This document shows positions 13,759 through 53,926 of a stretch of 54,081 nucleotides of DNA, one piece after another (position 1 is the first letter of the stretch; each line of letters starts with the position of its first letter). Source of the stretch: an uncultured Bdellovibrionales bacterium (lineage in GTDB: Bacteria; Patescibacteriota; Minisyncoccia; Moranbacterales; UBA1568); assembly GCA_964404075.1 (NCBI GenBank), contig CAYOIM010000001.1:1-54081 (forward strand), read 5' to 3'. The translations under genes were made by a program, and so were the position numbers. Under the pieces are notes generated by a model that was given only the letters and a program-made list of their open reading frames with translations, was not told the DNA's origin and made no database searches.

Positions 13759-16119
13759 ATGCGGGAAAAACGACACAAAGAACGCTCGAAAGCACCCCTG
13801 CCACTCCTCACCTATCAGGCAGAAGAGATTTTGGTCGCCAAAAACCGCGCCGTCTCGCCACTGGTGCTCTCATTCATCTATGAGCCCGAGAATATCGCAC
13901 TCAGGGATCTCGGTACCCTCTTCGGCACTTTCATCGTGACCGACCACCACGAGGACTCTAGCTATATCGTCAACTGCCTCGCGGCGGCGGCGAAAAAAGA
14001 ATACTTCATCAACCCCCGCCGTTCCGTCGAGGAGAGTTTCGAGTCGACCCTCCACAAGATCAACCTCACCTTGGGCAAGCTCGTCCGCGACGGGCACATC
14101 AACTGGATGGGAAAATTTCATGGATCCATCATCGCCATCCGTGACCGGGAGGCCTATTTTTCGGTCACCGGATTAGCGACGATACTCCTCCTGCGTCATA
14201 CCACCCTCTCCGCTATCAGTGAAGGACTCGCCGATCCAGAAGCCGCCCTCCACCCACTGAAGACCTTCACCGACATTGCCGAAGGGAAACTCCTCGCCGA
14301 TGACAAGATCATCGTAAGTACACCGGAACTCCTCGAGCTCCTCCCGCATGCGCTCCTCGAACGGGAAGCAGGGAAACTCCCGATCGATCGCCTCGCGCAA
14401 CTCATGAGGACCGCGCTCATCAATGAACGATCCGCGGCGGCGACCATTCTCATCAATTTCTCCGAAAATCCTGCCAAAGATACGCGGGGGGCACTCCGGA
14501 TGACGCCGAAGAGCGATGACGACAGCGGCACCCCGGTCACCCCGCTCATCGAAAATATATTCAGCAGTCAGCCCTTTCACAAGGAACAAAAATCCCACCC
14601 GGCAGAAGACCCCGTCGTGCCTCCTGCCGATACGGGAGAAAAAGAGCATATCGACAATCGTACCGGACATATTTATATTCAGGCCGACACCACGACTCCC
14701 AGAACGATTACCGAGACCGCCATCGATCGGGGCATAATGATACTCAAAGAGCAGTGCCTCATCCTTTTCATCAAAGGGAAAAAAAATATCCTCAGATATT
14801 CAGCGCTTCTCTCGGAAGGGATCTCCTCTTTCGTCACCCGATGCTTCCAATGGCTCATGCGATTCCTTCGGCGTCTCGCCACGCTCCTCTCCCGGTATCT
14901 CCGGAGCGCTTTGGATTTTCTGATCACCGCCTCCCGCGACCTCTTTCCACGGAAGACTTCATTCATCAATATCTCGTTCAACAAAAAAAATACGCCCACC
15001 CCCGGCTCGCCATCGCCTGCCGCCCCGGCTCACCTACCGGTATCCCGGGCTTCTGTTTTCCGCACATTCGCACGATTTCATTTCCATTTTCCCTCTTCTT
15101 GGTTTCCCCTCTCGCGACCAGCCATCCTCTATACCGATCGCATCGGGACATCCATACGGAAGCTCTGTCAAGGGATCATTTCTCTCTTTCAGTATCGTTC
15201 CACTCGGCAGAAATGGCTCATGGGAATCGCCATCTGCCTCATCCTCACCGGAACAATGCTCGTCATGCTCTCGCCTACACCAGAAGAGATCCAGGAAGAG
15301 GGGCTGGTCGTCGCCACTCCTCCTCCGACGGAGCCGACTTTCCCGCCCACGGATGAGCCGCTCGCCCGCGCCATATCCGGCAATGAAATCATGTCTTTCA
15401 ATACGGATGAGGCGCCACTCATACCCCTCGTCCTGAAAGACGCTCTCTTCATCCTGACGGATCGATCCATCATCAACGGAGAAACCAAGACCAGCATCCC
15501 GCTTCCGGCATCCGCGACTCCTGTGCTCCTCGCCTCCGCGATGCGCGATCTGAACGCCATCTTCATCTACGGAGCGGATAAAAAAATGTATATTTTCTAT
15601 CCGAATGCGAAATCCGCCGTCGAAAATACTTTCCCTCTCCCGAATGATTTCGCTCTGAGCGATATGGGTACCTACCTCACCTATCTCTACGCCTTCGATG
15701 CCAAACAGGGTCGAATCCTCCGATTTCCGCGTGCCGAAGGAGGCTTCGGAACGCCGACCGAATGGCTGAAAGAAAAAACGAGTTTCGGTGAAAACGCGAA
15801 AATAAGCATCGGCGAGAGCATCCTCATCGGATCTGACGGTACCATCTCATCCTTCACGAAAGGAAAGGGCGGAGCACTCCCGCTCACCGGCACAAGGGCG
15901 CCGGTCGCCATCCGAGATATCGCTCTCGCCGGTGACGGATCCTTTGTCATTCTCGATACGACTGAAAAAAGAATCGTCCACTTCAGTGCAAATGGACAAC
16001 TCATCGGACAGATTTTCGATGCCAAACTCGAAAACGCGAATCATCTCGCGATTCTCTCAAATGGAAGCACTGCCTTCGTCACCACGCCAGACAAGATTCT
16101 TTCTTTTGAGATACCGTAG
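13759..16119 (+). CDS. Large hypothetical single-pass membrane protein (cytosolic N-domain, Pro-rich linker, extracytoplasmic beta-propeller-like C-domain)
   Basis: ORF 13759..16119, 786 aa. TM at WLMGIAICLILTGTMLVML. The C-terminal segments (FVILDTTEKRIVHFSANGQLIGQIF, AFVTTPDKILSFEI) resemble NHL/propeller blades. The domain assignments are weak. Confidence 0.6.
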   Translation: MREKRHKERSKAPLPLLTYQAEEILVAKNRAVSPLVLSFIYEPENIALRDLGTLFGTFIVTDHHEDSSYIVNCLAAAAKKEYFINPRRSVEESFESTLHKINLTLGKLVRDGHINWMGKFHGSIIAIRDREAYFSVTGLATILLLRHTTLSAISEGLADPEAALHPLKTFTDIAEGKLLADDKIIVSTPELLELLPHALLEREAGKLPIDRLAQLMRTALINERSAAATILINFSENPAKDTRGALRMTPKSDDDSGTPVTPLIENIFSSQPFHKEQKSHPAEDPVVPPADTGEKEHIDNRTGHIYIQADTTTPRTITETAIDRGIMILKEQCLILFIKGKKNILRYSALLSEGISSFVTRCFQWLMRFLRRLATLLSRYLRSALDFLITASRDLFPRKTSFINISFNKKNTPTPGSPSPAAPAHLPVSRASVFRTFARFHFHFPSSWFPLSRPAILYTDRIGTSIRKLCQGIISLFQYRSTRQKWLMGIAICLILTGTMLVMLSPTPEEIQEEGLVVATPPPTEPTFPPTDEPLARAISGNEIMSFNTDEAPLIPLVLKDALFILTDRSIINGETKTSIPLPASATPVLLASAMRDLNAIFIYGADKKMYIFYPNAKSAVENTFPLPNDFALSDMGTYLTYLYAFDAKQGRILRFPRAEGGFGTPTEWLKEKTSFGENAKISIGESILIGSDGTISSFTKGKGGALPLTGTRAPVAIRDIALAGDGSFVILDTTEKRIVHFSANGQLIGQIFDAKLENANHLAILSNGSTAFVTTPDKILSFEIP

Positions 16120-16153: not shown

Positions 16154-16192
16154 ACAGCGGTTGCACCGCTCCAAAAGCGGAACAACCGCTCG
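16154..16192. repeat. ACAGCGG-type palindromic (REP-like) element
   Basis: ACAGCGGTTGCACCGCTCCAAAAGCGGAACAACCGCTCG, between convergent genes. The 36-nt core differs at one position from the reverse complement of 17928-17963. Confidence 0.8.
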
Positions 16193-16216
16193 CTCGTCCA
16201 AAGTCATCAAGAAATA

Positions 16217-17779
16217 TCACTCACGCACGGCGATGGAGAAGGTAGATCCACCGTCAATAAGTTTCCAGTTCCCAGGAACCTGATATAAAGTAGGATGTGG
16301 TGTGGTTGTTGAATTATCACCCACCTGACCATTGCCATTATATCCCCATGACCACAGTTCCTGATTTGCCCCATTGGTCTTCAATGCCAGACCATGCGCA
16401 TTACCAGCGGAAACAAATTTCCAATCCGTGGAAAGCCCTATCTGCTCTGGCAACGGATGAGGAGCGCTATCATCCGCACTTCCTAACTGACCATGTATAT
16501 TGCGTCCCCATGCCCATAGAGTTCCATCCATTCGAACACCCAATGAGTGATTAAATCCTGCAGAAATGGATTGCCAGGTGGTACTTACCTGAATAGGCAC
16601 AGGTGACAGTGCATCCCCTGATGACGAATTATCTCCAACCTTACCATATGCCCTTGACCCCCAAGCCCAAAGACTGTCATCCAACTTCTTAATGCCAAGA
16701 GAGTGTTGATTTCCAGCCGAAACCATTTTCCAACTACCCACAACCTTCGCGGGCTTGTGTCCATTCTCTCCATGACCCAATCGACCATTATTAGCATCCC
16801 CCCACGACCACAGCGAGTCATCAGTGCCTATAGCGAGAGAGAAATTACTCCCCGCCGAAACAAATTTCCATCCAGCAGGACAAATGCCAACACAATCCCC
16901 TGGACCAGAATTATCATATGCTATCCGTACAGGAACATCCCTATCGCTTGCATTACCAGTACCCAATCGCCGATCCGCACCATTTCCCCATGCCCACATC
17001 GAATGATCCGTTTTGATAGCAAGAGAATGGGACTCGCCAGCTGATACTGATTCCCAAGTATTGTCCGTCCCTATTTGTACTGGAGAAGTTTTATCAGTGC
17101 CACTATCGCCATCGCCAAGCTGACCATTCCCATTCTCTCCCCATGCCCACAATGTCCCATCCGCTTTCACTGCAAGCACATGGGCACCACTAGAAAAATT
17201 AGCGGCAGAAACCGATTTCCATTTGCTTCCGCCGATTGTCGAAACGGGGGTATGACGCTCAGTCGTGGTACCATCACCAAGTCGTCCACTTCCATTCTCC
17301 CCCCATGCCATGCTCGAGAGGGGCGCAATGGCGATCTCCAGGACGCGAACCGCTCCGTTGCTATTGGTACTCCCCTCCACTTTCACGCTCGCCAGGCTAT
17401 CCCTCCAGAGGACACTGCTACAATTCGCCACCGTTAGCACCAATCCATCCGTACCATAAAAACTGACCTTGGCAATTCCTCCTGAAACACTCACATTTAT
17501 TGGATTCGGACAGGTCCCGATGGCATCGCCATTCAACGAACTATACAGCATACCCGTTCCATCAAGAGTTTGAAAATTCCCATTATAAATAGCCTTCAGC
17601 ACTTTCTCTGCCGCGGTATCAGCCACCTGGAAGGACTGCACGGACTGCGCCGTCGATGCGGCACTTTTCCGGTTCGAGACATTCACCATGGTGATGGACA
17701 ATGCGGATGAGAGCACGATCGCGAGGATCAGCAGGGAAAATACGAGAACAGAACCTTTTTTTCTCAAAAGATGATTCAT
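16217..17779 (-). CDS. PilX-N-like signal-anchor protein with a seven-repeat RCC1 beta-propeller
   Basis: ORF 16217..17896, trimmed to ATG 17779 because the upstream codons read through a repeat. The N-terminus MNHLLRKKGSVLVFSLLILAIVLSSALSI resembles PilX_N/pseudopilin anchors. Seven RCC1 repeats follow: WAWGENGNGQLGDG, WAWGNGADRRLGTG, WSWGDANNGRLGHG, WAWGSRAYGKVGDN, WAWGRNIHGQLGS, WSWGYNGNGQVGDN and others. Confidence 0.8.
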   Translation of the reverse strand: MNHLLRKKGSVLVFSLLILAIVLSSALSITMVNVSNRKSAASTAQSVQSFQVADTAAEKVLKAIYNGNFQTLDGTGMLYSSLNGDAIGTCPNPINVSVSGGIAKVSFYGTDGLVLTVANCSSVLWRDSLASVKVEGSTNSNGAVRVLEIAIAPLSSMAWGENGSGRLGDGTTTERHTPVSTIGGSKWKSVSAANFSSGAHVLAVKADGTLWAWGENGNGQLGDGDSGTDKTSPVQIGTDNTWESVSAGESHSLAIKTDHSMWAWGNGADRRLGTGNASDRDVPVRIAYDNSGPGDCVGICPAGWKFVSAGSNFSLAIGTDDSLWSWGDANNGRLGHGENGHKPAKVVGSWKMVSAGNQHSLGIKKLDDSLWAWGSRAYGKVGDNSSSGDALSPVPIQVSTTWQSISAGFNHSLGVRMDGTLWAWGRNIHGQLGSADDSAPHPLPEQIGLSTDWKFVSAGNAHGLALKTNGANQELWSWGYNGNGQVGDNSTTTPHPTLYQVPGNWKLIDGGSTFSIAVRE

Positions 17780-17839
17780 GCTTGTATTTCTACGAATTAT
17801 ATTTGTATTATAACACTCCTTGGAAACAACCGTCGGTTT

Positions 17840-17886
17840 CATTTCAGCGGACACACCGCTCCGAAAGCGGAGTGACCGTTGAAATG
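17840..17886. repeat. ACAGCGG-type palindromic (REP-like) element
   Basis: CATTTCAGCGGACACACCGCTCCGAAAGCGGAGTGACCGTTGAAATG. Same subfamily as 43414-43465. Confidence 0.8.
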
Positions 17887-17927
17887 AATCATGCACTCAA
17901 AAGGCGGAACGACTGCTCAATGTGCGG

Positions 17928-17963
17928 GAGCGGTTGTTCCGCTTTTAGAGCGGTGCAACCGCT
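17928..17963. repeat. ACAGCGG-type palindromic (REP-like) element, inverted relative to 16156-16191
   Basis: GAGCGGTTGTTCCGCTTTTAGAGCGGTGCAACCGCT. Its reverse complement matches 16156-16191 at 35 of 36 positions. Confidence 0.8.
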
Positions 17964-18017
17964 AGTTTTTTGTATCTCCGTTTTTCTTATTCAAAAATCA
18001 TAAATCATCAATCGCCA

Positions 18018-20492
18018 TCAGGGATTTCTCATCGCGATTCCCGTCCGTTCGGAAATCTCCCGATTGACGACATCCGCATCGCGACCGAAACGAAGCCGTG
18101 AGAGTTCCTTTAGGGCATTCGCGACTTCCTGATCGCCCGGTGTCGGCGGATAGGTTTTCATATTGAACGGCTTGGTGAGTTGACCGTTCATAAGGAGGCG
18201 CGCGAAACAATTCCGATTGTCCACATTGATGAGGTCCCGCGCAGTGAATACCGGCTGGAACTGCTTTTCGAGAAATTCCCCGTCCTCGGAGCCCACGCGG
18301 AACGCGACGAGCGATCCGACATTGCCGAATACCGCCTTGGAAATCTCTTCTTTCAGCTGAGCGATGAACTGATGCGCGATCGTGAGGACGAGCCGGTATT
18401 TGCGCGCCTCGGAGAGGATCTGCGCGATACTATTCGTCGTCACATTCTGGAACTCATCCATATAGAGATAGAAATCCGTTCGTTCATCCTCCGGTGTGTC
18501 CACGCGCGAAAGCGCTGCCATGAGGATCTTTCCCACGATGACCATACCGAGGAGCCTGGCATTGATCTCTCCGATCTTCCCCTTGGAGAGATTCACGAGG
18601 AGTATCTTCTTCCCGTCCATGATATCGCGGAAATTGAGCGTGCTCTTCTGCTGGGCGATGATCGGTCGCATCATGTCATTACTGATGAAGGTCGTCAGCT
18701 TGGAAGTGATATACGGGACCATATTGGCGAGCGCCGCGTCACCACCCGCCTTCTCGGCCTCCTTCGTCCAGAAATCGTACGCGATCGGATTCTTGCACTT
18801 GGTCAGTTTGTACTTCCGGAAATCCTCGTCCGCCAATACCTTGGAAATCTCCATGAGCGTCGATCCGCTCTCCGGATCCTCCATGATGAGGAGCATCGCA
18901 TTGCGCATATACTGCTCGAACATCGGTCCTCCAGTCGCCTTGAGATCATAGAGCTGGTCGAAGATGCCGATCATCTCGTTGATGACGAAGGTCTTCTGTT
19001 CCGGATGATTCTGATCGAATTCGAGCATATTGAGACCGATCGGCCGCTCCGTATCGGACGGATCGAAGAGAATCACATCTTCCGCGCGTTCCTTCGGAAT
19101 GGCCATCAGGATATCCTCGATCGCGTCCCCGTGCGGATCGATGAAACAGAATCCCTTGCCCGCACGCGCATCCTTCTTCGCCATTTCCTGGAGATACACG
19201 GACTTCCCCACACCAGTCTGCCCGATGACATACATGTGGCGGCGGCGATCATTGTCGGTGATGCGAATATCCGTCTTCGCACCGCGATAATCGTTGTAGC
19301 CGAGGAGAATGCCATCTTTCGGGATATCGACGGGCGGTGCGGCCGCCCCAGCTTTCAGCCACTTGATCTTCGGCGTTTCGATCTGCGATGTTGGGAAATG
19401 AAAGATGCTCGCGACTTCTTCTGTCGAGAGGATGATCGCGCTCTCCTCATCGAAATTCCGATAAATATAATCGAATGCCGCCTGCCGACCCTTCACCCGC
19501 TTCCGCACGCGGAAGGCATTCACCCCGATATTCTCGAATTGCGAGAAAGCGTTCTCGATATGGGCGAGGATCTCTTCGGCTCGGTGTTGCTCTGCCGCCG
19601 CCGCGACGAGACGGATATTCACCTTGAACGCCGGCTTCGATGCCTTGCCGTCGATCGTCTTCACGAGCTCCTGCTCCTCGGGAGTGAGGCTCACCATCTC
19701 TTTCTTCTCGACATCCGGCTCATGCTTCCCGGGGAGAAATACCGAGAGGAGCCCCTTCGCCATCTCCTTCACGATCGAATCCCCCTGCGCATCCTTCAGC
19801 CGTTTCCCGCTTTGCATTTTCTGCGCGATTTCCTTTCCCCTAGTATGTTCCCCCTTGCCCGCGGGCGTCAGGACGAATTGGATCGCCGCCCCCTCACCGC
19901 TCGCTCCGAGCCGTGACAAGGCATTCGTCATCTCACTCAATGGATCCGTCGAGAGCGCCCGGTAAGATTTGATAGGCAAAGCGTGGTTCTTGCTCAATTC
20001 CAAAGTGGAAAAAGCCGCCGCACAACCGGGCGAAAAAATAGTATAGTCGGAAACCTTCTCGATCACCGAATCGGGAAAAAATCCGTGGATCTGTTTCTCA
20101 ATGCTTTCACGGAACTTCTTCGGCACGGCGAAATAGAAGAAAATCTCCTCCTTGTCGGAAGGATTCGCCACTTCAAAAACGATGTTCGGCGTCTCATAGA
20201 AGAAACTCCTCCACCCGAAAGTCCGTTTCATCGAGGCGAGCGTCCCGAGGAGCTGTTCCATCGCGGCGACCTCTTCTTTCCAGGGTTCATTGCCGGCGGA
20301 ACTGTTCTTGTCATCGACATTCTTCTTCGTCACCTGGATCACTTCCAGATCCATCGCGATGGAGCGATTGATCTGGATGCGGAATCGCACCATACTCCGC
20401 ACGACGAGAAAAACGCCCGAAAAAAAAGTCAGCATTCCGAAGAGAAGCGTCACCGGAAGGAGGATTATATTCAAATCGAAACCATCAGCCAT
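18018..20492 (-). CDS. TraD/TrwB/VirD4-like type IV coupling-protein-family ATPase
   Basis: ORF 18018..20555, trimmed to ATG 20492 (MADGFDLN) because the upstream 21 codons read through a repeat. N-terminal TM (ILLPVTLLFGMLTFFSGVFLVV). Walker A YVIGQTGVGKSVYL. Walker B FYLYMDEFQNV. TIAHQFIAQL...GNVGSLVAFRVG, as in coupling/FtsK-HerA-type ATPases. Confidence 0.75.
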   Translation of the reverse strand: MADGFDLNIILLPVTLLFGMLTFFSGVFLVVRSMVRFRIQINRSIAMDLEVIQVTKKNVDDKNSSAGNEPWKEEVAAMEQLLGTLASMKRTFGWRSFFYETPNIVFEVANPSDKEEIFFYFAVPKKFRESIEKQIHGFFPDSVIEKVSDYTIFSPGCAAAFSTLELSKNHALPIKSYRALSTDPLSEMTNALSRLGASGEGAAIQFVLTPAGKGEHTRGKEIAQKMQSGKRLKDAQGDSIVKEMAKGLLSVFLPGKHEPDVEKKEMVSLTPEEQELVKTIDGKASKPAFKVNIRLVAAAAEQHRAEEILAHIENAFSQFENIGVNAFRVRKRVKGRQAAFDYIYRNFDEESAIILSTEEVASIFHFPTSQIETPKIKWLKAGAAAPPVDIPKDGILLGYNDYRGAKTDIRITDNDRRRHMYVIGQTGVGKSVYLQEMAKKDARAGKGFCFIDPHGDAIEDILMAIPKERAEDVILFDPSDTERPIGLNMLEFDQNHPEQKTFVINEMIGIFDQLYDLKATGGPMFEQYMRNAMLLIMEDPESGSTLMEISKVLADEDFRKYKLTKCKNPIAYDFWTKEAEKAGGDAALANMVPYITSKLTTFISNDMMRPIIAQQKSTLNFRDIMDGKKILLVNLSKGKIGEINARLLGMVIVGKILMAALSRVDTPEDERTDFYLYMDEFQNVTTNSIAQILSEARKYRLVLTIAHQFIAQLKEEISKAVFGNVGSLVAFRVGSEDGEFLEKQFQPVFTARDLINVDNRNCFARLLMNGQLTKPFNMKTYPPTPGDQEVANALKELSRLRFGRDADVVNREISERTGIAMRNP

Positions 20493-20520
20493 TAATTTTG
20501 TATTATTTTTGAAATTCAGC

Positions 20521-20557
20521 GAGCGGTCGTTCCGCTTTTGGAGCGGTGCGACCACTC
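20521..20557. repeat. ACAGCGG-type palindromic (REP-like) element
   Basis: GAGCGGTCGTTCCGCTTTTGGAGCGGTGCGACCACTC. Same orientation as 17928-17963. Confidence 0.75.
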
Positions 20558-20612
20558 TCCATCCCAGATTCTCGTATCTAATATCTGCTATCTAATATCT
20601 ATTATCCGATTC

Positions 20613-21035
20613 CTACTCCTCGATCATCCCCTTCGCCTTCAGGGCTTCATAGAACTTCTCCACGAGCTCATCGTGCATCTTGTCGAGAATATAATAGTCT
20701 CCGAGCTTCCTCGCCACTTTCACGGCATACGGCACGCCCTTCACACTCGCCATCTGGAGCAATTCCGCCACCTGACTCTCCGCGTCGGTCTGTTTCGAGA
20801 CAGCCTCCGCATCTCTCACGATCTGTCCGTCATCTGTCGGGGTGGTCGTGCCACTCACCTGAGTCAGGACATCCGACACGCGATCCTCCACCTTCTCGCT
20901 CTTCGTCTCCGTCTCCTTCGATGGCTCCAGGGAGGGACTCATCTGTTCAGTCGAACCCGCGCTCCCATCAGGAATTGCCGGCTTCTCGTCCGCCTTCATC
21001 GTGCTCTCATCGAAAAAGGTAATTTCATCCGGCAT
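20613..21035 (-). CDS. Hypothetical acidic protein (orphan)
   Basis: ORF 20613..21053 (TTG). The first ATG is at 21035 (MPDEITFFDE). The N-half is disordered and Ser/Thr/Glu-rich, and the C-terminus is a small helical domain. No recognisable motif. Confidence 0.55.
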   Translation of the reverse strand: MPDEITFFDESTMKADEKPAIPDGSAGSTEQMSPSLEPSKETETKSEKVEDRVSDVLTQVSGTTTPTDDGQIVRDAEAVSKQTDAESQVAELLQMASVKGVPYAVKVARKLGDYYILDKMHDELVEKFYEALKAKGMIEE

Positions 21036-21093
21036 AACCAATGCAGTTAACAATTAGCAGTCAATAGAAAACCCTTTTCTTCACAGATCGGCA

Positions 21094-21192
21094 GGGACTG
21101 ATGCAATGGCGAATTTTGAAATCACCTCGCAGCGCAATCCGTCTTCGGACGAGCAGGGTATGATTGAGAAATCGCCATTGCATCAGTCTCCC
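21094..21192. repeat. Long hairpin with conserved loop (CCTCGCAGCGCA...CGAGCAGGG family), copy A
   Basis: The arms GGGACTGATGCAATGGCGAATTT (21094-21116) and AAATCGCCATTGCATCAGTCTCCC (~21169-21192) have a 14-bp perfect core. The loop holds CCTCGCAGCGCA (21125-21136), the inner hairpin TCCG-TCTT-CGGA (21138-21149) and CGAGCAGGG (21150-21158). Confidence 0.8.
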
Positions 21193-21202
21193 TCATCAGT
21201 CC

Positions 21203-21529
21203 TTACACTCCGCTCTCTTTCTTCATCTCTTCCTTGAAATTCGCGACGATTTTCTCCACGACCATATCATATCCCGGGATCTTCTCATCGAGAAATACCT
21301 TCAATTTCACTTCATCCGCGCCGCCCTCCATCAATTTCTCATACTCATCCACGCCGGCAGGACCAAGTCTGTCGAGCGTCTCGAGCATGATTCGCTTCAC
21401 GAGCACCTCGCCCATCTGCGCGATGAGCTCCATTTTCTTCTCGTCCGACACCGCCCCGAACCCGAGTTCCTCCGCGAGATTTTCGATCTCCTGCTGATAA
21501 TTCACTGCCATATGTTTGCATTGTTTCAA
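21203..21529 (-). CDS. Small acidic helical hypothetical protein
   Basis: ORF 21203..21529 (alternative ATG at 21511, MAVNYQQEIENL). All-helical, Glu/Lys-rich. No motif I can name with confidence. Confidence 0.55.
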   Translation of the reverse strand: MKQCKHMAVNYQQEIENLAEELGFGAVSDEKKMELIAQMGEVLVKRIMLETLDRLGPAGVDEYEKLMEGGADEVKLKVFLDEKIPGYDMVVEKIVANFKEEMKKESGV

Positions 21530-21546
21530 AAAATTATCGTAAAAAA

Positions 21547-24375
21547 CTAATTCGTCGTCGTATACAGCCCGATCCGCGTTCCCTGAGGAACCACCTTCGC
21601 CACTCTCGCCAGATATTCACCGACAGAAATATCGGGTCGAGCACGGAAAAAGTCACCAAGCGATGCCTTGCCACCAGGGAAAGTCTTCGGCAACTGTGAA
21701 ACGAATTCTTGGAGATTTTTCGATTGAGTGGAATTGAAACGAGTATTTTCTACGAGTGAAACCGTGCCATTGCTCTCTACCCTGAGAATATCAGACATTT
21801 TCGTACTGAGAATCTCCCTCTTATCAAACACCCAATCCTTCCCACTCGCCTGATCATCCACTCGGAAAATCTGCATGAACCAATCGCTCCCCCTCCTCAT
21901 TTCCGTGAGACTCGGCCTCTCAAAAGGTGCTTCTGCTGGCGATGGAGCTACTTCCACTGGTGTCGTCACGACACTGTCTATGCCGCTCGACACGCCGCGC
22001 TGAGACACAAACTGCGTCTTTGGTCCATTGACATCTGCTATAGAAACCCCCGTCGACGCATGAGGATGAAGAATCTTATTCTCGATCGTCACCTCATTGA
22101 TCGGAACTCCCGGATTCTTCGCCGCCCACTCCGCAATCTTCGCATCATTCGCTTCGATGTTTTTCACCGCCTCGGCACTGATCTTCGCAGCTTTCCCCAT
22201 TACCTTGTCCGCATCCCCTGCGCTGAACAACTTATCGAGATCAATGAGTTCCTTCACTTGAATATTGTGAATATTTCCACTTCCGATTCCAGCTGCCTTC
22301 AATCGCTCCGGGCTAAGATGCCTCAATTGTCGTTCCAGGGCGTTGATTGCGTGAGTTTTCTGACCCTCACTCATACCGCTGAAATTTGAATAATGTTCGC
22401 TGAGGTAACTCCCGATGAGACCATCCACCGTATCCCCCTTCGAAACCTCGTAGATATTATCTCCAACACCAGAAGGAACTCCTACGGCATTTTTCGCTGC
22501 TTCGGTCGCAACACCAGATGGCGCATCGAAATGACCCGGGCTCGGTTGTGCATAAGCACCCACTGTCGGAACATTCGCAACGGAAGGAGTACCAACAACA
22601 TCTTTTGCTCCAACCGCATTTTCCGTAACCGCCTTAGCAGCAGCAGCTCCTTTTTTCGCCACATCTGCGGCATTTCCTGCGACTCCAGCCCCGAAATATG
22701 TATCCTTTATATGATCACCAACATGTGGAATACCAAACATCAAACCCAATGAAATGGCTACTGCCCCCAGCCTTCGCTTCATGTGACCCCAAATCCTACC
22801 CTCCAAGTCTTGTTGCACTACCTCTGGACTCGTTTGATTCTTGAGATATTTTGATAAGTGATTCCATCTCTCCTCTACTGCTATTTTCTCAATTTCATCC
22901 ATGGTTTGCTCGGCTTGTTTCCGTACGACATTCGATGCCCTTCCTTGAGACATTTTTTCAAAGACTCCCTCGAACATCGCGAATGATCCGAGTCCCGCCG
23001 CCGCCCGACGCGCGACGAGCATGCCTGTCGCCATAGCACCGCCACCAGTCGCCACACTCGTACCCAGAGCCACAGCACCGAGTCCGACCTTCTGCCACAA
23101 CTTCAACTTGTTATAACTATTCCCCAGATCTTCGCACAATCCGACAGCCTTCGCATACATACCTTCTCGCTTCATCGTCGCCTGCGTCCATGCCTCGTAC
23201 AATTTGATCTTCGATTCCGTACCGAAGAACTGGAGCGTTTCAGCCATCTTGGCCTTCAGATCCTCCGGAGACAACTCCGGCTGACTTTTCAATCGTTCTA
23301 TCTTCAAATCGACAAGCTGCCGAAGTGCCTGATGGTAAGCCTCCCGCTCGGGGACGCTATCACTCTCCTTTTTCCGCACTCCGAGTTTTTCCCATAGCCG
23401 TTGCCACACCCCGACATTCCGATATTCCGCTTCTGCATACTCCTTACGGAGTTCCACCAACTTCCCTGCCTCAACTACTTTTCCATTTTGATCCGTTGTC
23501 ACTATATACAACTCCCTGATCTGCTTTTCAAGTTGGGAAATCCCCTGATTCCGCACCTCCTCCGGTTTACCAAAGTGTGCCAATACTTTATCTGCTTCGG
23601 GAGATCCCGAAGCCATAATATTTTCCTTTCCTACGCTATGTTCTTTGCGGCTATCCTGTCCTTCCAAAACTTGCTCCGCAAAAACAGCACCTGAAGCATA
23701 GAGCTCTCGTTCTTTCTCAAGTAGACGCTTCACGACTTCCTGCAACCCCTCCTCCAAGGGGATATTGTCAATTCCGATTTTTCCAGATCGGACATGCTCG
23801 ATCAAATTTCGCAATTGTTCCGGTGTAAGCCCTTTTTCCCACTGGACTTCCGCATGCTTTGCCAGTACCACGAATAATTCATCGAAATCCTTCACCCCAG
23901 CAAGCTCTTCCTCGGTAGGTTGCGTCTTCTCTTTTTGCAACTCAGTTGCATTAACAACAGGAGGTACATCGGATGGCTTAGGAGCATCAGATGCCTGTGC
24001 GGGCATTGGGTCTGGAATGGGAGCAATCGCTGGTACAGGATCAGCAACGGATGCTTGAACGATACCTGCAGGAGCGACTTTTGGTGTCTTCGGCGTCGTT
24101 CGACCAATGCCTCGACGAACCGGCGACGCCTTCTGCTTCTTCGGCTCCGACTTCGATTTCGTTTTCGGTTTCGACTTCAACTTCGATTTCGGTTCACTGT
24201 TAGCAGGTACCCCTGGCTTCTGAGGGGCTACAGAGATAGCCTCGGGAGGCGTAGCAGCAAAAGAATGCAAACTAGCATCAGGCTTGGGCTCGCCGATTTT
24301 TATTTGAGATTTGGCTATTGTTCCTGCATTATTTCTACCATCAGCCATCCATGCAGGGATATCTTTTCCGGTCAT
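21547..24375 (-). CDS. 942-aa hypothetical membrane protein (orphan)
   Basis: ORF 21547..24375. The N-terminal ~150 aa are Lys/Pro-rich (SKLKSKPKTKSKSEPKKQKASP). The central Gly/Ala-rich TM segments are GLGAVALGTSVATGGGAMATGMLVA and LGAVAISLGLMFGIP. IYEVSKGDTVDGLIGSY is a possible LysM-like segment. No confident domain. Confidence 0.6.
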   Translation of the reverse strand: MTGKDIPAWMADGRNNAGTIAKSQIKIGEPKPDASLHSFAATPPEAISVAPQKPGVPANSEPKSKLKSKPKTKSKSEPKKQKASPVRRGIGRTTPKTPKVAPAGIVQASVADPVPAIAPIPDPMPAQASDAPKPSDVPPVVNATELQKEKTQPTEEELAGVKDFDELFVVLAKHAEVQWEKGLTPEQLRNLIEHVRSGKIGIDNIPLEEGLQEVVKRLLEKERELYASGAVFAEQVLEGQDSRKEHSVGKENIMASGSPEADKVLAHFGKPEEVRNQGISQLEKQIRELYIVTTDQNGKVVEAGKLVELRKEYAEAEYRNVGVWQRLWEKLGVRKKESDSVPEREAYHQALRQLVDLKIERLKSQPELSPEDLKAKMAETLQFFGTESKIKLYEAWTQATMKREGMYAKAVGLCEDLGNSYNKLKLWQKVGLGAVALGTSVATGGGAMATGMLVARRAAAGLGSFAMFEGVFEKMSQGRASNVVRKQAEQTMDEIEKIAVEERWNHLSKYLKNQTSPEVVQQDLEGRIWGHMKRRLGAVAISLGLMFGIPHVGDHIKDTYFGAGVAGNAADVAKKGAAAAKAVTENAVGAKDVVGTPSVANVPTVGAYAQPSPGHFDAPSGVATEAAKNAVGVPSGVGDNIYEVSKGDTVDGLIGSYLSEHYSNFSGMSEGQKTHAINALERQLRHLSPERLKAAGIGSGNIHNIQVKELIDLDKLFSAGDADKVMGKAAKISAEAVKNIEANDAKIAEWAAKNPGVPINEVTIENKILHPHASTGVSIADVNGPKTQFVSQRGVSSGIDSVVTTPVEVAPSPAEAPFERPSLTEMRRGSDWFMQIFRVDDQASGKDWVFDKREILSTKMSDILRVESNGTVSLVENTRFNSTQSKNLQEFVSQLPKTFPGGKASLGDFFRARPDISVGEYLARVAKVVPQGTRIGLYTTTN

Positions 24376-24381
24376 ACCTTT

Positions 24382-25668
24382 TTATTTTAGATATTTTTCA
24401 ATGCTTTTACTGACCAACTCCCGTGCATACATATCTGTCTCCGATTCCGACCATCCAAACTTCCCTCCGACACGCGCGAAAGAATCCTTCATCCCATCAA
24501 TCAAAGCACCGAGAATTTCTCCAGGATGATCTATATTATATGTCTTCAGATCTACCGATTCTTTTTGAGCGCCCTCTTTCATCGTGTTGATACCCGCTAC
24601 TGCGGCACCAAAAAGAATATCATGATACCCATCGGCATCCGCTTCCTTGAAAAGCTCTTCATAGGTCCGAATCGGTGTCTCGGCGCCCTCCTTCGCGCTT
24701 CCCGCCACTGTCCCGACAACAGGCTCAGGAGAAACTCCGTCGGGAAGCGGTGGCTGATCGCCCGGATTACCGGCGAAAGTAGTTGTTGAGACATTTGGCT
24801 TCCTTGACTTCGTGCGAGGCTTCTTTTTCAAAAATCTCGCAAATTTTTCCTTCGTCGAATAAGATACTAAGCCACTATCCACTGATTTATAGGCTATCTT
24901 TTCATCGGAAACTTCCGTAATCACATACTCTTTCGATGAATCACTTCGAAGAGTATATGTATCACCAACCACAAATTTTGCTTGTTGTTTTTTTTGGTCT
25001 TTCAATTCACGCATAACAGCGGGAAATTGCTCTTCCCAAAGTGCTACTAGTTTTTCACGAACTGGAATCACATCTCCCAACGCTAAACAACCAAAATGAT
25101 CGAGGTATTGAGAAAAAAAATCTCCCTTCGCCATCTCTGGATTGGTCTTCAAAGTTTCACGCAAGGTGCTCCGGAAGTATTCCCTATGAGCATCGTCAAA
25201 CAAGACTTCAGCAATTCGATTCTTCCACTGACCGATAAGACCATTGAATTTCTCAGAAAAAACCTTGTCCATGGGAAGTAATGCCGGCAATCCATTTGGC
25301 AATTTAAGGCTGAATTGTTCTTTTTTTGGATCTTTTTTTGAAGAAATCCTATCAGCCAATTCCATGAGATCCCCTATTGTCTGCGCCGAATCTATCTTCT
25401 TCTCCGTATCAGCAATATATTGACTCCCTTCTATCTGTAAGCGTGCCACTTCACCTTGATTTAACTCACCCTTACCCCAATTGCCACGCCCTCCAGCTCG
25501 AGGTTTATCCGGCTTCGGAGATTTTGGTTGCGCAGATGCTATAATCTCCCCTGCCAAAACATCCATATCCGCAAAAATATCCGCATCCTTATCAGGTACT
25601 TCTTGGATTGATGGTTTTGGTATTTCAGACATATTTATGCTCTTCATTATAATACACAAACTCTGCAT
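24382..25668 (-). CDS. 428-aa hypothetical protein (orphan)
   Basis: ORF 24382..25668, 3 nt after the upstream stop. Basic linker KKKPRTKSRKPNV. No TM and no recognisable motif. The start codon choice (25668, 25647 or 25632) is uncertain. Confidence 0.55.
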   Translation of the reverse strand: MQSLCIIMKSINMSEIPKPSIQEVPDKDADIFADMDVLAGEIIASAQPKSPKPDKPRAGGRGNWGKGELNQGEVARLQIEGSQYIADTEKKIDSAQTIGDLMELADRISSKKDPKKEQFSLKLPNGLPALLPMDKVFSEKFNGLIGQWKNRIAEVLFDDAHREYFRSTLRETLKTNPEMAKGDFFSQYLDHFGCLALGDVIPVREKLVALWEEQFPAVMRELKDQKKQQAKFVVGDTYTLRSDSSKEYVITEVSDEKIAYKSVDSGLVSYSTKEKFARFLKKKPRTKSRKPNVSTTTFAGNPGDQPPLPDGVSPEPVVGTVAGSAKEGAETPIRTYEELFKEADADGYHDILFGAAVAGINTMKEGAQKESVDLKTYNIDHPGEILGALIDGMKDSFARVGGKFGWSESETDMYARELVSKSIEKYLK

Positions 25669-25671
25669 GAC

Positions 25672-27489
25672 CTACGATTTCTTCAACTCGAGCAAGCCAG
25701 CCACCCGCTGTTTCAAAACTATTGCCAATTGAGCGGTGCCAAATTTCACAACGGCCTGCTTCAGAGCATCCGCATCTTTCGGCTCAACTCTGCCTGCGGC
25801 ACTAGTAGCAATAGCCACGATATGCCCACCTACCGCTGCAAGGAGTCTTTTGGCGCGCTCCCGATCCTCTCTGTATATCTCCAAGAAATTTTCACCTTTG
25901 GCGGCAAGTTTTTCGTCAATAAGAGACAAGCTCTTCGTAAGAAATGTTTCAATATCTCTTTGCGCATCTTGTTTCAAAGATTCCACATCCACCAACTCCG
26001 TCGATTTCACGGTTGCCCCCTCATAAACGGGGCCTCCCAATGCCTCCAATCGGCTCTGCCAGAGAGTACTTAATCCTTTATTAACAGCAACAACACGCGG
26101 CTTCAGCTGATCATCGAACAGCTTCGAAAATCCAGGCAGCGCCGTGTTCTTCAAACGATTGCGCTGATCTATCATCTGATGCAACACTTCATGGAGTGGT
26201 TGAAACTCCGCGCTCGTATCCTTCGGATCAATCGGTATGAAGGCTCTTGTCCCCTGTTGAGACTTCCCTCCCGAGCGTTTATGGTTGCCATTTTGTTCTC
26301 TCTTGCCGATATCTTCCAATGCTACCGCATCCGGCGCCTGTGCAATTTTCTCTTCCCATGTTTTCCGTACGAGTTCCAGAGCTAATGTAAATTTTCTCCC
26401 GAGATACAATGTTTCTAGCTCTGTATTCATCTCAACCCATATCACTCGCGCTTCACGCTGTGTCGTCCTACTCATAGCATCAAATACCTGCTTGGCCTCA
26501 TCCGATACCGGAAGGAAAATCTTTTTCTTCGTCGACTTCTCCGTTGCCGGATCTATCTCATACGAAAACACGGTTTCGATATTGGTATAATCCACCAAAT
26601 CAATCAATGTCTCTTTTCCTCGCTGCTCCTCTTCAAGATGTCGCCTGTATGATGCTAATTGCTCAGCTGAATTTTCAATGACATTTTCTGTAAATTCTGG
26701 TGCAACTACATTTTCGACAACTAGTGCTTGTGTATCACCAACAACGGCACGCTCCGACTTTGGAGCACGCCCTTTCCTTAGCGCACCTTTCGTCGTCGTA
26801 GCTTTGTTTCCTCCCTCTTCAGTATCACTCAAACGCATTTTCCTTTGTCCGGGCTTGCGACCTCGCTTTTTATTTTCCGATCCATCAGAAACATCTCCGT
26901 CTTCCCCGAGTGGAAAAGTATCTAGAATAGTCTTTGCAAAAGCGACAATTTCCTGCATATCCCGTGATGCATCCTGCTTACCGACCAACTTCTTTTCATA
27001 CGCGAGTACTAATTCTTTCAAATGCTGCCTCTTCATGGAGAAATCAACCCGAAAGAACCAATTCTGATCCTCACTATACCCCTCCACGCCAATCAACGAA
27101 ACATCGACTTGATTCAACTTATTGAGCAGACCCCTCCCAAACATCTTATTCCCTTCCTTTTCTCCAATTTCACCCTGTTTCGCTCCATCGGCAAATCCAC
27201 CATCAACTGTTCCTGATTTTCCAGGCTTCCGTTTCTTATATCCCTTCCTCTTCAAGACACTCTGGAGGATACTTTCCGGGAGCACATGAGTTGCACCTCC
27301 CACGGCATACTCCACTTTCCGGGCAGTCATATTCCCTGGTGTTTCTGCTCCCGCCTGGACATTCAGTCCATGCGCAGAAATAATATGGAAATCCGGTAGC
27401 TTCTTCCCGTTCCCATCTCGAGATAATTTCGAACGAAAAGTCTCGCCCGCTTTGATTTTTGGATCCAAAAAATTCATTCCTTCACCCAT
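25672..27489 (-). CDS. ~605-aa hypothetical protein (orphan)
   Basis: ORF 25672..27537 (TTG). The first ATG is at 27489 (MGEGMNFLDPK). AT-hook-like KKRGRKPGQRK. No TM and no recognisable catalytic motif. Confidence 0.55.
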   Translation of the reverse strand: MGEGMNFLDPKIKAGETFRSKLSRDGNGKKLPDFHIISAHGLNVQAGAETPGNMTARKVEYAVGGATHVLPESILQSVLKRKGYKKRKPGKSGTVDGGFADGAKQGEIGEKEGNKMFGRGLLNKLNQVDVSLIGVEGYSEDQNWFFRVDFSMKRQHLKELVLAYEKKLVGKQDASRDMQEIVAFAKTILDTFPLGEDGDVSDGSENKKRGRKPGQRKMRLSDTEEGGNKATTTKGALRKGRAPKSERAVVGDTQALVVENVVAPEFTENVIENSAEQLASYRRHLEEEQRGKETLIDLVDYTNIETVFSYEIDPATEKSTKKKIFLPVSDEAKQVFDAMSRTTQREARVIWVEMNTELETLYLGRKFTLALELVRKTWEEKIAQAPDAVALEDIGKREQNGNHKRSGGKSQQGTRAFIPIDPKDTSAEFQPLHEVLHQMIDQRNRLKNTALPGFSKLFDDQLKPRVVAVNKGLSTLWQSRLEALGGPVYEGATVKSTELVDVESLKQDAQRDIETFLTKSLSLIDEKLAAKGENFLEIYREDRERAKRLLAAVGGHIVAIATSAAGRVEPKDADALKQAVVKFGTAQLAIVLKQRVAGLLELKKS

Positions 27490-43413: not shown

Positions 43414-43465
43414 TTTTTTTACAGCGGACACACCGCTCCAAAAGCGAAATGACCGTTGTAAAAAA
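43414..43465. repeat. ACAGCGG-type palindromic (REP-like) element
   Basis: TTTTTTTACAGCGGACACACCGCTCCAAAAGCGAAATGACCGTTGTAAAAA, 43 nt upstream of the amidohydrolase ATG. Confidence 0.8.
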
Positions 43466-46286: not shown

Positions 46287-46337
46287 TTTTTTACAACGGA
46301 CGCACCACTCCAAAAGCGAAGCGACCGTTATAAAAAA
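46287..46337. repeat. ACAGCGG-type palindromic (REP-like) element
   Basis: TTTTTTACAACGGACGCACCACTCCAAAAGCGAAGCGACCGTTATAAAAAA, 46 nt upstream of the tpiA ATG. Confidence 0.8.
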
Positions 46338-53038: not shown

Positions 53039-53926
53039 TCATTTTTCTTGATGTTCAATACCAATTTTCCAAACACCTTTTTCCAGAAAAGCTTCGACTG
53101 TTTGACGAGTCGCCTTGTTGATGAGATTCGAATGCGACAACTTCTTTTCCTTGGCATATTCAGCCAGTGTGACAATCTTCTTATCCTCCAAATAGGCCAG
53201 CCTTTTGTGATAGCTATTCGTCAGTGCTTTTCCAACTATTTCCTCCATAATATCGGTTGCGCCATTCAAATCAAAATCCCGAAAAGCCGTATAGTAGCTT
53301 TGCCGATCAATAAATTTTATATTTATCGGCACAAATCCCTCCCGAATGAGCAAGTAATTATTCAGTACCCGTCCGATCCGGCCATTACCATCACAAAAAG
53401 GATGCGTATGCTCAAAAACGAGATGCAACCTCGCTATGCGCCGAATGATATTTTCATGACTGGTAGCATTATATTCGGAGAGCATTTTTTCCAAACGCTC
53501 GACAACCTCCCTTGGATGCGGAGCGATATGACTACCGACACGAACAAACTCATTTTCCGCTCTGAATCTTCCCGCAATATCATCGCGGATATTGGAAATG
53601 AGCATTTTATGAAGCATGAGAATGACCGAAAGCGCGAGTTCTTGCTCCTTGGCTTTTTTATCGATATACGAAACAACTCGAGCCAAATTCTTGGCTTCAA
53701 AAATTTCTCGCTCGCTGATGAATCGATCCAGGTCAATCTGCAATAGTATTTTCTCCGTTTCCTCAAGAGTAAGCGTGCTATTTTCGATAGCATTGGAGTT
53801 ATACACCTGCTCAGCTACTTCTGCTTCGGAAATAAGTCCAATAAGCGCCTCTTTTCCAGTAAAGGCTTTGTAATATCGCTCGCGCAAAGAGCTTATTTTA
53901 TTGTAGACATTTAGTATTTTTGCCAT
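53039..53926 (-). CDS. fic: Fic-domain protein (AMPylase-type motif, N-terminal inhibitory motif)
   Basis: The canonical HPFCDGNGRIGR matches HxFx(D/E)GNGRxxR. The upstream SNAIEN matches the (S/T)xxxE(G/N) auto-inhibitory helix motif. Confidence 0.9.
   Translation of the reverse strand: MAKILNVYNKISSLRERYYKAFTGKEALIGLISEAEVAEQVYNSNAIENSTLTLEETEKILLQIDLDRFISEREIFEAKNLARVVSYIDKKAKEQELALSVILMLHKMLISNIRDDIAGRFRAENEFVRVGSHIAPHPREVVERLEKMLSEYNATSHENIIRRIARLHLVFEHTHPFCDGNGRIGRVLNNYLLIREGFVPINIKFIDRQSYYTAFRDFDLNGATDIMEEIVGKALTNSYHKRLAYLEDKKIVTLAEYAKEKKLSHSNLINKATRQTVEAFLEKGVWKIGIEHQEK

Follow-up and report, generated by a model that had tools for sequence, protein, structure and literature searches.

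The ultra-small Patescibacteria represent a large share of bacterial diversity and are host-dependent. VirD4-like type IV coupling proteins (T4CPs) were reported in 2,918 of 3,035 Patescibacteria genomes by Quinonero-Coronel et al. (2025), who suggested exaptation, found 148 of 5,713 T4CP homologues near virB4 and derived these organisms' type IV secretion system (T4SS) from the monoderm MPF-FATA class (PMC12102498). An essential T4SS cluster without a recognisable coupling protein was described in Southlakia by Wang et al. (2023), and the Patescibacteria T4SS was found to be essential for epibiotic growth (PMC10633639). Here we analyse a locus built around an ATPase of the coupling-protein type, a run of seven minus-strand open reading frames (ORFs A to G, lettered from upstream to downstream) between positions 16217 and 27489 of a 54,081-nt window (the whole stretch of DNA analysed, contig CAYOIM010000001.1 of assembly GCA_964404075.1). 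The original prediction, made from the letters of the window alone, had presented the seven genes as one cluster, possibly encoding a transfer or host-contact apparatus.

The published set of 5,713 T4CP homologues (PMC12102498) very probably includes the ATPase (ORF F), and the locus gives the orphan Patescibacteria T4CP a concrete context, namely a partner protein (ORF E) with split and fused states and, in one class, a "cargo slot" whose occupants are alike in their C-terminal tail only. We propose, with a probability of about 0.4, that this exapted T4CP and an adaptor handle tail-bearing, signal-less, fast-evolving proteins in an export or surface-display role. The support counted for this proposal comprises the T4CP ancestry of F, its exaptation, the unity of E and F, the restriction of the tail to the slot, a gradient of evolutionary rates and the tight packing of A to D.

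The ATPase and its ancestry

ORF F (18018-20492, minus strand; 824 aa) encodes a membrane-anchored, divergent T4CP-like ATPase with a transmembrane (TM) helix at aa 9-31, a DUF8128 region at approximately aa 45-400 and a nucleotide-binding domain with an all-alpha insert at approximately aa 405-800. DUF8128 is the precomputed Pfam annotation (PF26449) of the ~350-aa region between the TM helix and the P-loop domain of the F family. The Walker A (GQTGVGKS, nt 19200-19223) and Walker B (YMDEFQ, nt 18447-18464) motifs are invariant among 16 homologues; both had been read correctly in the original prediction, as had three Lys/Arg/Pro-rich linkers, all of which occur verbatim in the translations. 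The assignment to the coupling-protein type also holds, with matches above the Pfam gathering scores to TrwB_AAD_bind (26.1 bits, gathering 20.5, aa 410-727) and TraG-D_C (25.2 bits, gathering 22). Pfam FtsK_SpoIIIE (far) and HerA remained below threshold, and the NCBIfam TraD, TraG, VirD4-like and TrbC models scored 14-40 bits against cut-offs of 250-800, with no named equivalog. The best solved relatives retrieved from the Protein Data Bank (PDB) with a 48-sequence profile were TrwB (5.8e-8) and DotL (2.7e-6), ahead of HerA; an AlphaFold2 (AF2) model of F from a 16-sequence alignment (pLDDT 44) was too poor for fold assignment. F has a single strong N-terminal TM helix, related lineages include TM-less forms, and canonical T4CPs usually have two TM helices.

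The relatives of F number >7,000, and the best 120 are 70-92% identical and come from Candidatus Moranbacteria/Moraniibacteriota. An exhaustive search returned 5,633 clusters (50% identity) matching F at E<=1e-30, the top 150 of which align across almost the full length at 33-56% identity. A tblastn search of plasmids gave full-length homologues (26-28% identity, DUF8128 included) that carry a T4CP annotation within conjugative clusters. Among them, WP_331738717.1 (E 9e-65) on Embleya plasmid NZ_CP108778 lies in the order PrgI-family protein, XF1762, VirB4-like ATP-binding protein, T4CP, replication-relaxation protein and NlpC/P60 protein, and Streptomyces plasmids carry full-length matches inside T4SS gene clusters. 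The order on haloarchaeal plasmids is pilin, conjugal transfer protein, a separate DUF8128-like protein and a TraM-recognition-domain protein. Because the full-length plasmid relatives are the coupling proteins of real conjugative clusters, these comparisons indicate that F is a T4CP by descent, from the coupling ATPases of monoderm/archaeal conjugative T4SSs, which fits the published MPF-FATA origin of the Patescibacteria T4SS (PMC12102498).

F itself is no longer linked to VirB4 or relaxase genes, and this linkage has been lost. No VirB4, relaxase, integrase or phage gene (including capsid and terminase) is present within the 54-kb window, in line with the original prediction, and the other window genes encode MreB, MurA, RF-1, PrmC, glycolysis enzymes, FtsQ, DNA polymerase III delta' and glycosyltransferases. 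What the window holds is ordinary chromosome of a Candidatus Moranbacteria (Patescibacteria) genome and not a mobile element.

F is also very highly conserved. Identity to the closest relative is 92% for F, 83% for D, 72% for E, 49% for G, 46% for C and 26% for B, with no counterpart of A. In four more distant genomes, F retains 68-80% and RF-1 66-71% identity, with 27-32% over partial lengths for C, and across Moranbacteria the identity of F (68-92%) is above that of RF-1. F thus evolves as slowly as a core housekeeping gene.

Several further observations concern the F family more broadly. Haloarchaeal conjugative plasmids show a further split version of the DUF8128 and ATPase architecture: in Haloterrigena plasmid pHTS138 (L168, 7758-12051), a 399-aa protein of its own carries the DUF8128-like region and is encoded immediately upstream of the TraM-recognition-domain ATPase. 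The large Bacillus phages CP-51 (KF554508), SP-10 (AB605730) and Goe26 (OM728296) and Geobacillus phage TP-84 (KY565347) carry genes for full-length homologues with DUF8128 and the T4CP ATPase, at 22-24% identity and 83-88% coverage (phrog_5156), all annotated as hypothetical; F matches PHROG family phrog_5156 at E 2.7e-89, the genes around the TP-84 homologue were uninformative, and 2.9 million viral contigs yielded 2 weak partial matches and nothing more. Some family members (P0194, P0191, P0197, P0200 and others) carry C-terminal extensions of 400-1,200 aa that are Pro/Ala/Val-rich, of low complexity and without a Pfam domain, those of P0194 and P0191 ending with the short conserved motif ...KLAxGE(V/I)(F/Y)(V/I)DxxGNV. 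In the distant metagenome loci L085-L090, L093 and L097, translation table 11 yields the ATPase as a series of short fragments, a pattern consistent with stop-codon recoding, e.g. code 25 (Gracilibacteria/Absconditabacteria), in which case the family would reach those lineages.

The partner protein E

Gene neighbourhoods were surveyed using the ATPase and 10-kb flanks from 80 Moranbacteria genomes, whose ORFs were searched with the window proteins; the inclusion of two further context loci gave 81 distinct loci for the adjacency counts. ORF E (20613-21053, minus strand) encodes an acidic ATPase partner whose more likely start, ATG 21035 (140 aa), agrees with the closest relatives. Besides an N-terminal half that is disordered, it has a "Y..ILSKV" motif and, at the C-terminus, a conserved helical domain of ~55 aa (nt 20616-20783); it matched neither Pfam nor, in profile searches, the PDB.

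In 79 of the 81 distinct Moranbacteria loci, the gene immediately upstream of F is E. Beyond this arrangement, the E C-terminal domain is fused to the N-terminus of the ATPase in at least 18 representative clusters and 5 metagenome contigs. The fused clusters, many in number, encode proteins of ~910-930 aa without a TM helix; in one representative, the E domain is followed by TM helices and then the ATPase. A metagenome scan seeded with distant ATPase representatives confirmed the two states, with 7 non-Moranbacteria contigs in which a separate, small E-type ORF immediately precedes a TM-anchored ATPase, alongside the 5 with the fused, TM-less form. Genes of the fused form lie directly after those for SecY, adenylate kinase, an amino-acid-kinase-family protein and methionine aminopeptidase. 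The E domain was not detectable in a more distant TM-anchored ATPase subfamily.

Because the two are adjacent in nearly all loci and fused in many independent clusters and contigs, E and F appear to form an ancient, invariant pair that acts as one unit, with E as the predicted obligate partner. Taken together, the split and fused states indicate that E is a cytoplasmic subunit or adaptor of F, encoded alternately as a separate gene or within the same polypeptide.

The slot upstream of E and F

ORF D (21203-21529, minus strand) encodes an acidic, helical DUF5663 protein, for which ATG 21511 (102 aa) is the more likely start and agrees with the database gene call. Its match to Pfam PF18908 (31.7 bits, gathering 23.7, E 2.4e-7) is accompanied by precomputed PF18908 annotation on homologues. 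The original prediction had recognised no domain in the five ORFs upstream of F, which holds for A, B, C and E, all without a family match, and fails for D; searches of PHROGs, NCBIfam and PADLOC returned no match for A-E. D immediately precedes E in 66 of the 81 loci, was not detected outside Moranbacteria-type loci and is unrelated to E according to HHalign. A word-indexed protein search gave few matches (12 for D and 11 for the C family).

ORF C (21547-24375, minus strand; 942 aa), the "slot -1" protein, consists of a Lys/Pro-rich N-terminus, long helices, a Gly/Ala-rich hydrophobic core, a LysM-like motif and a shared C-terminal tail. The core (aa 418-474, nt 22954-23124; a second stretch lies at aa 535-552) is the most conserved stretch of the protein, with invariant G433, G438, G445 and G463, and the LysM-like motif "YEVSKGDTV" at aa 641-650 is accompanied by a weak match to the LysM of LytE (E 0.11). 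TM segments had been attributed, among the orphans, to this ORF alone; they prove to be no more than weakly hydrophobic Gly/Ala-rich stretches below a Kyte-Doolittle value of 1.6, and F has a clear TM helix. A simple hydropathy scan found no strongly hydrophobic stretch in A-E, and no obvious N-terminal signal sequence was seen by eye.

An iterated hidden Markov model (HMM) places the C family in 61 loci, always directly upstream of D, at 13-27% identity across the class compared with the higher value in the closest relative given above. The AF2 model of C (11 sequences) is all-helical with a pLDDT of 52 and better-defined segments at 270-400, 470-540 and 640-770, and is too poor for fold assignment; a Foldseek search of the PDB with it returned nothing below E 0.1, the top matches being ClyA/AhlC-type helical toxins (probability 0.3), which were not trusted. 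PDB profile searches with the C, D and E families gave nothing significant. In one subclade, C and D are replaced by a different family of 1,400-1,750-aa proteins, and in a few genomes the slot holds a 268-291-aa protein or is empty; locus L052 has E and F without a C-type protein.

What these slot proteins share is the tail. In C, this ~48-aa two-helix module occupies aa 881-931 (21583-21735, minus strand), with the consensus L..xQ...L.KF.K.A.K.FG.....P..GETV..YL.RVA.LA. An HMM built from the last 60 residues of slot proteins matched 65 ORFs, all 65 of them in the slot directly upstream of D/E, and none of the ~7,400 other ORFs of the same loci. The tail-positive ORFs include unrelated families missed by the full-length C model, both 1,400-1,600-aa giants and short proteins of 268-291 aa. 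A regular expression for the tail core was less discriminating, with 52/73 slot proteins and 43/880 other ORFs matching. The slot directly upstream of E and F is thus occupied, as far as these profiles indicate, by D and one large, fast-diverging protein without a signal peptide, whose tail appears to be the sole universally conserved part.

Neither C, D nor the tail was found outside Moranbacteria-type loci or in conjugative plasmid clusters, and D and the C family appear to be Moranbacteria-specific additions to E and F. The linkage of the orphan genes to this ATPase family, singled out in advance as the check on the original prediction, therefore recurs across genomes for E, D and C, in the case of C and D within Moranbacteria and not beyond.

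Variable neighbours and intergenic elements

The ORF check recovered all seven minus-strand ORFs at the coordinates originally given, with intergenic gaps of 3 nt (A-B), 6 nt (B-C) and 17 nt (C-D); their treatment as one seven-gene unit was not upheld. ORFs A (25672-27489, minus strand; 605 aa) and B (24382-25668, minus strand; 428 aa) encode hypervariable accessory proteins without family matches in domain searches. Among ~80 loci, A has one partial homologue (L001), with no counterpart in the partial ORF at the contig end of the closest relative, while the C-terminal ~200 aa of B recur in 4 loci and the rest was not found again. Local GC content falls to 0.45 at A in a dip spanning A/B, and the slots upstream of the C slot hold >30 unrelated small families across loci. 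A C-terminal amphipathic helix considered as a common feature of the slot -2 (B-like) proteins was dropped, as its HMM reached no further than the four known B relatives.

ORF G (16217-17779, minus strand) had been described as a PilX-N/RCC1 protein. The seven-bladed RCC1 propeller is well supported (seven strong repeats, E 1e-64; RCC1-like domain 219 bits, cut-off 150), and the PilX_N match is sub-threshold (20 bits, cut-off 25.5), with a hydrophobic N-terminal helix following KKG in the pilin-like N-terminus. G is a candidate pilin-like RCC1 adhesin. Only the closest relative, L165 (ATPase 92% identical), was found to carry it downstream of F, at 49% identity; the 80 surveyed loci and L166 (ATPase 91% identical) lack it. 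G therefore appears to be a separate neighbouring insertion outside the conserved module, and a unit including it was rejected.

The D-E spacer is structured, as originally predicted, with a fold z-score of -3.1 against shuffled sequences and a perfect 16-nt inverted repeat, ACTGATGCAATGGCGA, at 21097-21112 / 21172-21187. The ~91-nt hairpin that it delimits (21097-21187) is missing from the otherwise alignable spacer of the closest relative, and looks like a small MITE-like insertion within the operon. A second element, 38 nt long and composed of alternating AGCGG/CCGCT units (ACAGCGGTyGCACCGCTCCAAAAGCGGAACrACCGCTC), lies just upstream of F (20520-20560, minus strand), with further copies at 16155-16195 (+) and 17925-17965 (-) and weaker ones at 43430-43450 (+) and 46302-46322 (+), i.e. 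5 copies in the window where 0 are expected by chance. Alternative small hairpins can form from it, two inverted copies bracket G, and L165 has a diverged version at the same site upstream of its ATPase gene; Rfam gave no match to the element, and its exact 17-nt core is absent from 164 loci. It may serve as an operator or attenuator, or be REP-like. A promoter/terminator scan performed no better than on shuffled sequence.

The envelope glycosyltransferases originally noted at the flanks are represented upstream by two PMT_2-type genes, and the accompanying statement that neither an integrase nor a tRNA adjoins the cluster is correct, the Rfam scan of the window having found three tRNAs and nothing else, the nearest 12 kb from the cluster. 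Convergent with the cluster, a gene at 13759-16119 (+) encodes a 786-aa protein that has no Pfam family and a single TM helix at aa 487-505, and whose C-terminus weakly resembles WD40 (PDB 2ymu, E 2.7e-4). This gene, followed by a MarR-like gene, is syntenic with the cluster in most Moranbacteria loci having enough downstream sequence. A Fic/DOC-family protein is encoded near the window end (53039-53926, minus strand), where GC content is 0.435 across the last 2 kb. Loci L003, L006, L008 and others carry a Moranbacteria-type locus in third-party-annotation bins titled "uncultured Bdellovibrionales bacterium", which look mislabelled.

Proposed function and alternatives

The locus can be pictured as a chromosomal Moranbacteria operon built on an exapted T4CP. 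A hexameric motor of E and F at the membrane would recognise the C-terminal tail of the slot protein, as T4CPs recognise C-terminal signals of their substrates, and the small acidic proteins D and/or E may act as adaptor or chaperone. ATP would be used to pass the tail-bearing protein to a translocon, either the chromosomal Patescibacteria T4SS encoded elsewhere or another partner, or to insert it into the membrane, and A and B, whose genes are packed closely upstream, might be further clients of the motor. The delivered protein would finally reside in the envelope or where the cell meets its host, the site of diversifying selection. A further version, which we regard as unlikely, is that E and F form a T4SS-independent motor, near-universal in Patescibacteria, which in Moranbacteria works with the DUF5663 protein to read the tail and to export or insert into the membrane a signal-less protein of the surface or of host contact that diversifies rapidly; if true, a coupling protein of conjugation would have given rise to a new secretion/display route. 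Should the tail prove to be a recognition signal, substrates or effectors could be predicted from sequence alone, and the locus would be a case of a conjugation component turned into core cell machinery.

Several points weigh against this export or display role. The link between F and its putative substrate is drawn from sequence and gene context, the AF2 models, built from shallow alignments, are poor and the structure searches gave no significant match. Instead of serving as a recognition signal, the tail could simply be the part of a single ancestral protein that has changed most slowly. C and D are restricted to one class and E and F are far more broadly distributed, so the ancestral job of E and F cannot depend on C and D. 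Collinearity across the Moranbacteria class extends over 25 kb, from RF-1 to the second PMT gene; gene order conserved within the class, that of the glycosyltransferases, 786-aa convergent gene and MarR-like gene included, is therefore partly plain synteny, and glycosyltransferase adjacency is weak evidence of function. A soluble ATPase encoded after SecY, adenylate kinase, amino-acid-kinase and methionine aminopeptidase genes in other lineages suits secretion no better than a housekeeping role. Finally, in S. epibionticum the T4SS is essential and the t4cp homologue was reported to be dispensable (PMC12102498).

The main rival to an exapted export motor, which we consider rather unlikely in itself, is that E and F are a housekeeping nucleic-acid translocase of the FtsK/HerA/T4CP superfamily, serving segregation or DNA uptake/export, and that the upstream genes are passengers or envelope proteins. 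This would account for a conservation above that of the translation factor RF-1, and it agrees with the near-universal presence of the family in Patescibacteria (see also PMC12102498), with the position of the TM-less fused forms directly after the SecY, Adk, amino-acid-kinase-family (PyrH) and Map genes, with the Pfam description of TrwB_AAD_bind as a DNA-binding domain and with weak NCBIfam matches to the archaeal DNA import ATPases CedB and CedD. However, no gene for a DNA-binding partner, Xer or a relaxase is linked to F, the FtsK_SpoIIIE score is far under threshold, and the slot-specific tail and tight A-D packing speak against random passengers. It is still less probable that F and C constitute a self-contained membrane machine, in which the Gly/Ala-rich hairpin of C is a channel or platform, the LysM-like region binds the cell wall, F and E energise assembly or gating, and the divergent PMT-type glycosyltransferases perhaps glycosylate exposed Pro/Ser/Thr-rich parts. 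The strongest conservation of C does fall on its Gly-rich core (G433, G438, G445 and G463), the LysM-like motif has its weak LytE counterpart, and PMT genes adjoin the cluster in most loci having enough upstream sequence and directly adjoin E and F in the non-Moranbacteria contig L119. Against this, the hydrophobic segments of C are under the standard TM threshold, E and F occur without a C-type protein in L052 and elsewhere beside a 268-aa slot protein, PMT adjacency may be plain synteny, and neither VirB6 nor any pore former was matched significantly in the structure search.

Two readings of the locus as a foreign or conflict-related island were rejected. An anti-phage island, in which a HerA/mad8-like ATPase would work with hypervariable sensors or effectors, is very improbable: the PADLOC match to mad8 (3e-13) and weak HerA matches, the extremely fast turnover of neighbours and the phage-encoded homologues (phrog_5156, 2.7e-89) are what such an island might present, but the PADLOC match concerns the ATPase alone, no other PADLOC component was found among the other 7 proteins, and there is no multi-component system. 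Domain searches of the neighbours revealed no nuclease, toxin or methylase, and defence ATPases are patchy and fast-evolving whereas F is near-universal, syntenic and better conserved than RF-1. Least credible of all is a remnant of an integrated conjugative element or prophage. The T4CP ancestry of F, the GC dip over A/B and the PHROG match of the ATPase could be read this way, yet the hallmark genes (integrase, relaxase, VirB4, capsid and terminase) and an adjacent tRNA are absent from the window, the orphans have no PHROG matches, the viral contigs supplied no more than the two weak partial matches, and the same position with the same neighbours is kept in ~80 genomes.

Comparison with known systems

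The orphan framing of the original prediction overstated the novelty of the locus, since T4CPs away from virB4 are published (PMC12102498) and DUF5663 and DUF8128 are catalogued Pfam families. A full-text literature search for either domain found no paper. The two papers on orphan T4CPs and the Patescibacteria T4SS (PMC12102498, PMC10633639) differ from the present account in containing no gene neighbourhood, E domain states, DUF5663, C family or tail; not found in the literature searched are the E domain with its split and fused states, the C family, the slot-specific tail and the rate gradient.

With FtsK/SpoIIIE and HerA, F shares the ASCE P-loop superfamily, whose members are membrane-anchored or soluble hexameric motors with housekeeping-level conservation. 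It differs from them in its sub-threshold scores to their models, the lack of a gamma domain and of a NurA partner, and its T4CP-type helical insert. The DotL (IcmO) system of Legionella offers a functional parallel. IcmS, IcmW and LvgA are small acidic adaptors that present signal-bearing, fast-evolving substrates to DotL; here, too, a T4CP is accompanied by small acidic, predicted cytoplasmic proteins, and DotL is the second-best solved relative of F. D and E have no sequence similarity to IcmS, IcmW or LvgA, and the analogy is one of possible function.

F resembles the conjugative T4CPs of monoderms and archaea (VirD4/TrwB/TraD/TraG, MPF-FATA-type) in its N-terminal anchor, DUF8128-type N-domain and TrwB-like P-loop domain with helical insert. 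Unlike these, F is not located beside VirB4, VirB3/PrgI, a relaxase or a cell-wall hydrolase, and has as partners E, D and a tail-bearing protein, none of which occurs in conjugative clusters; instead, it is chromosomal, placed among housekeeping genes and 68-92% conserved across the class.

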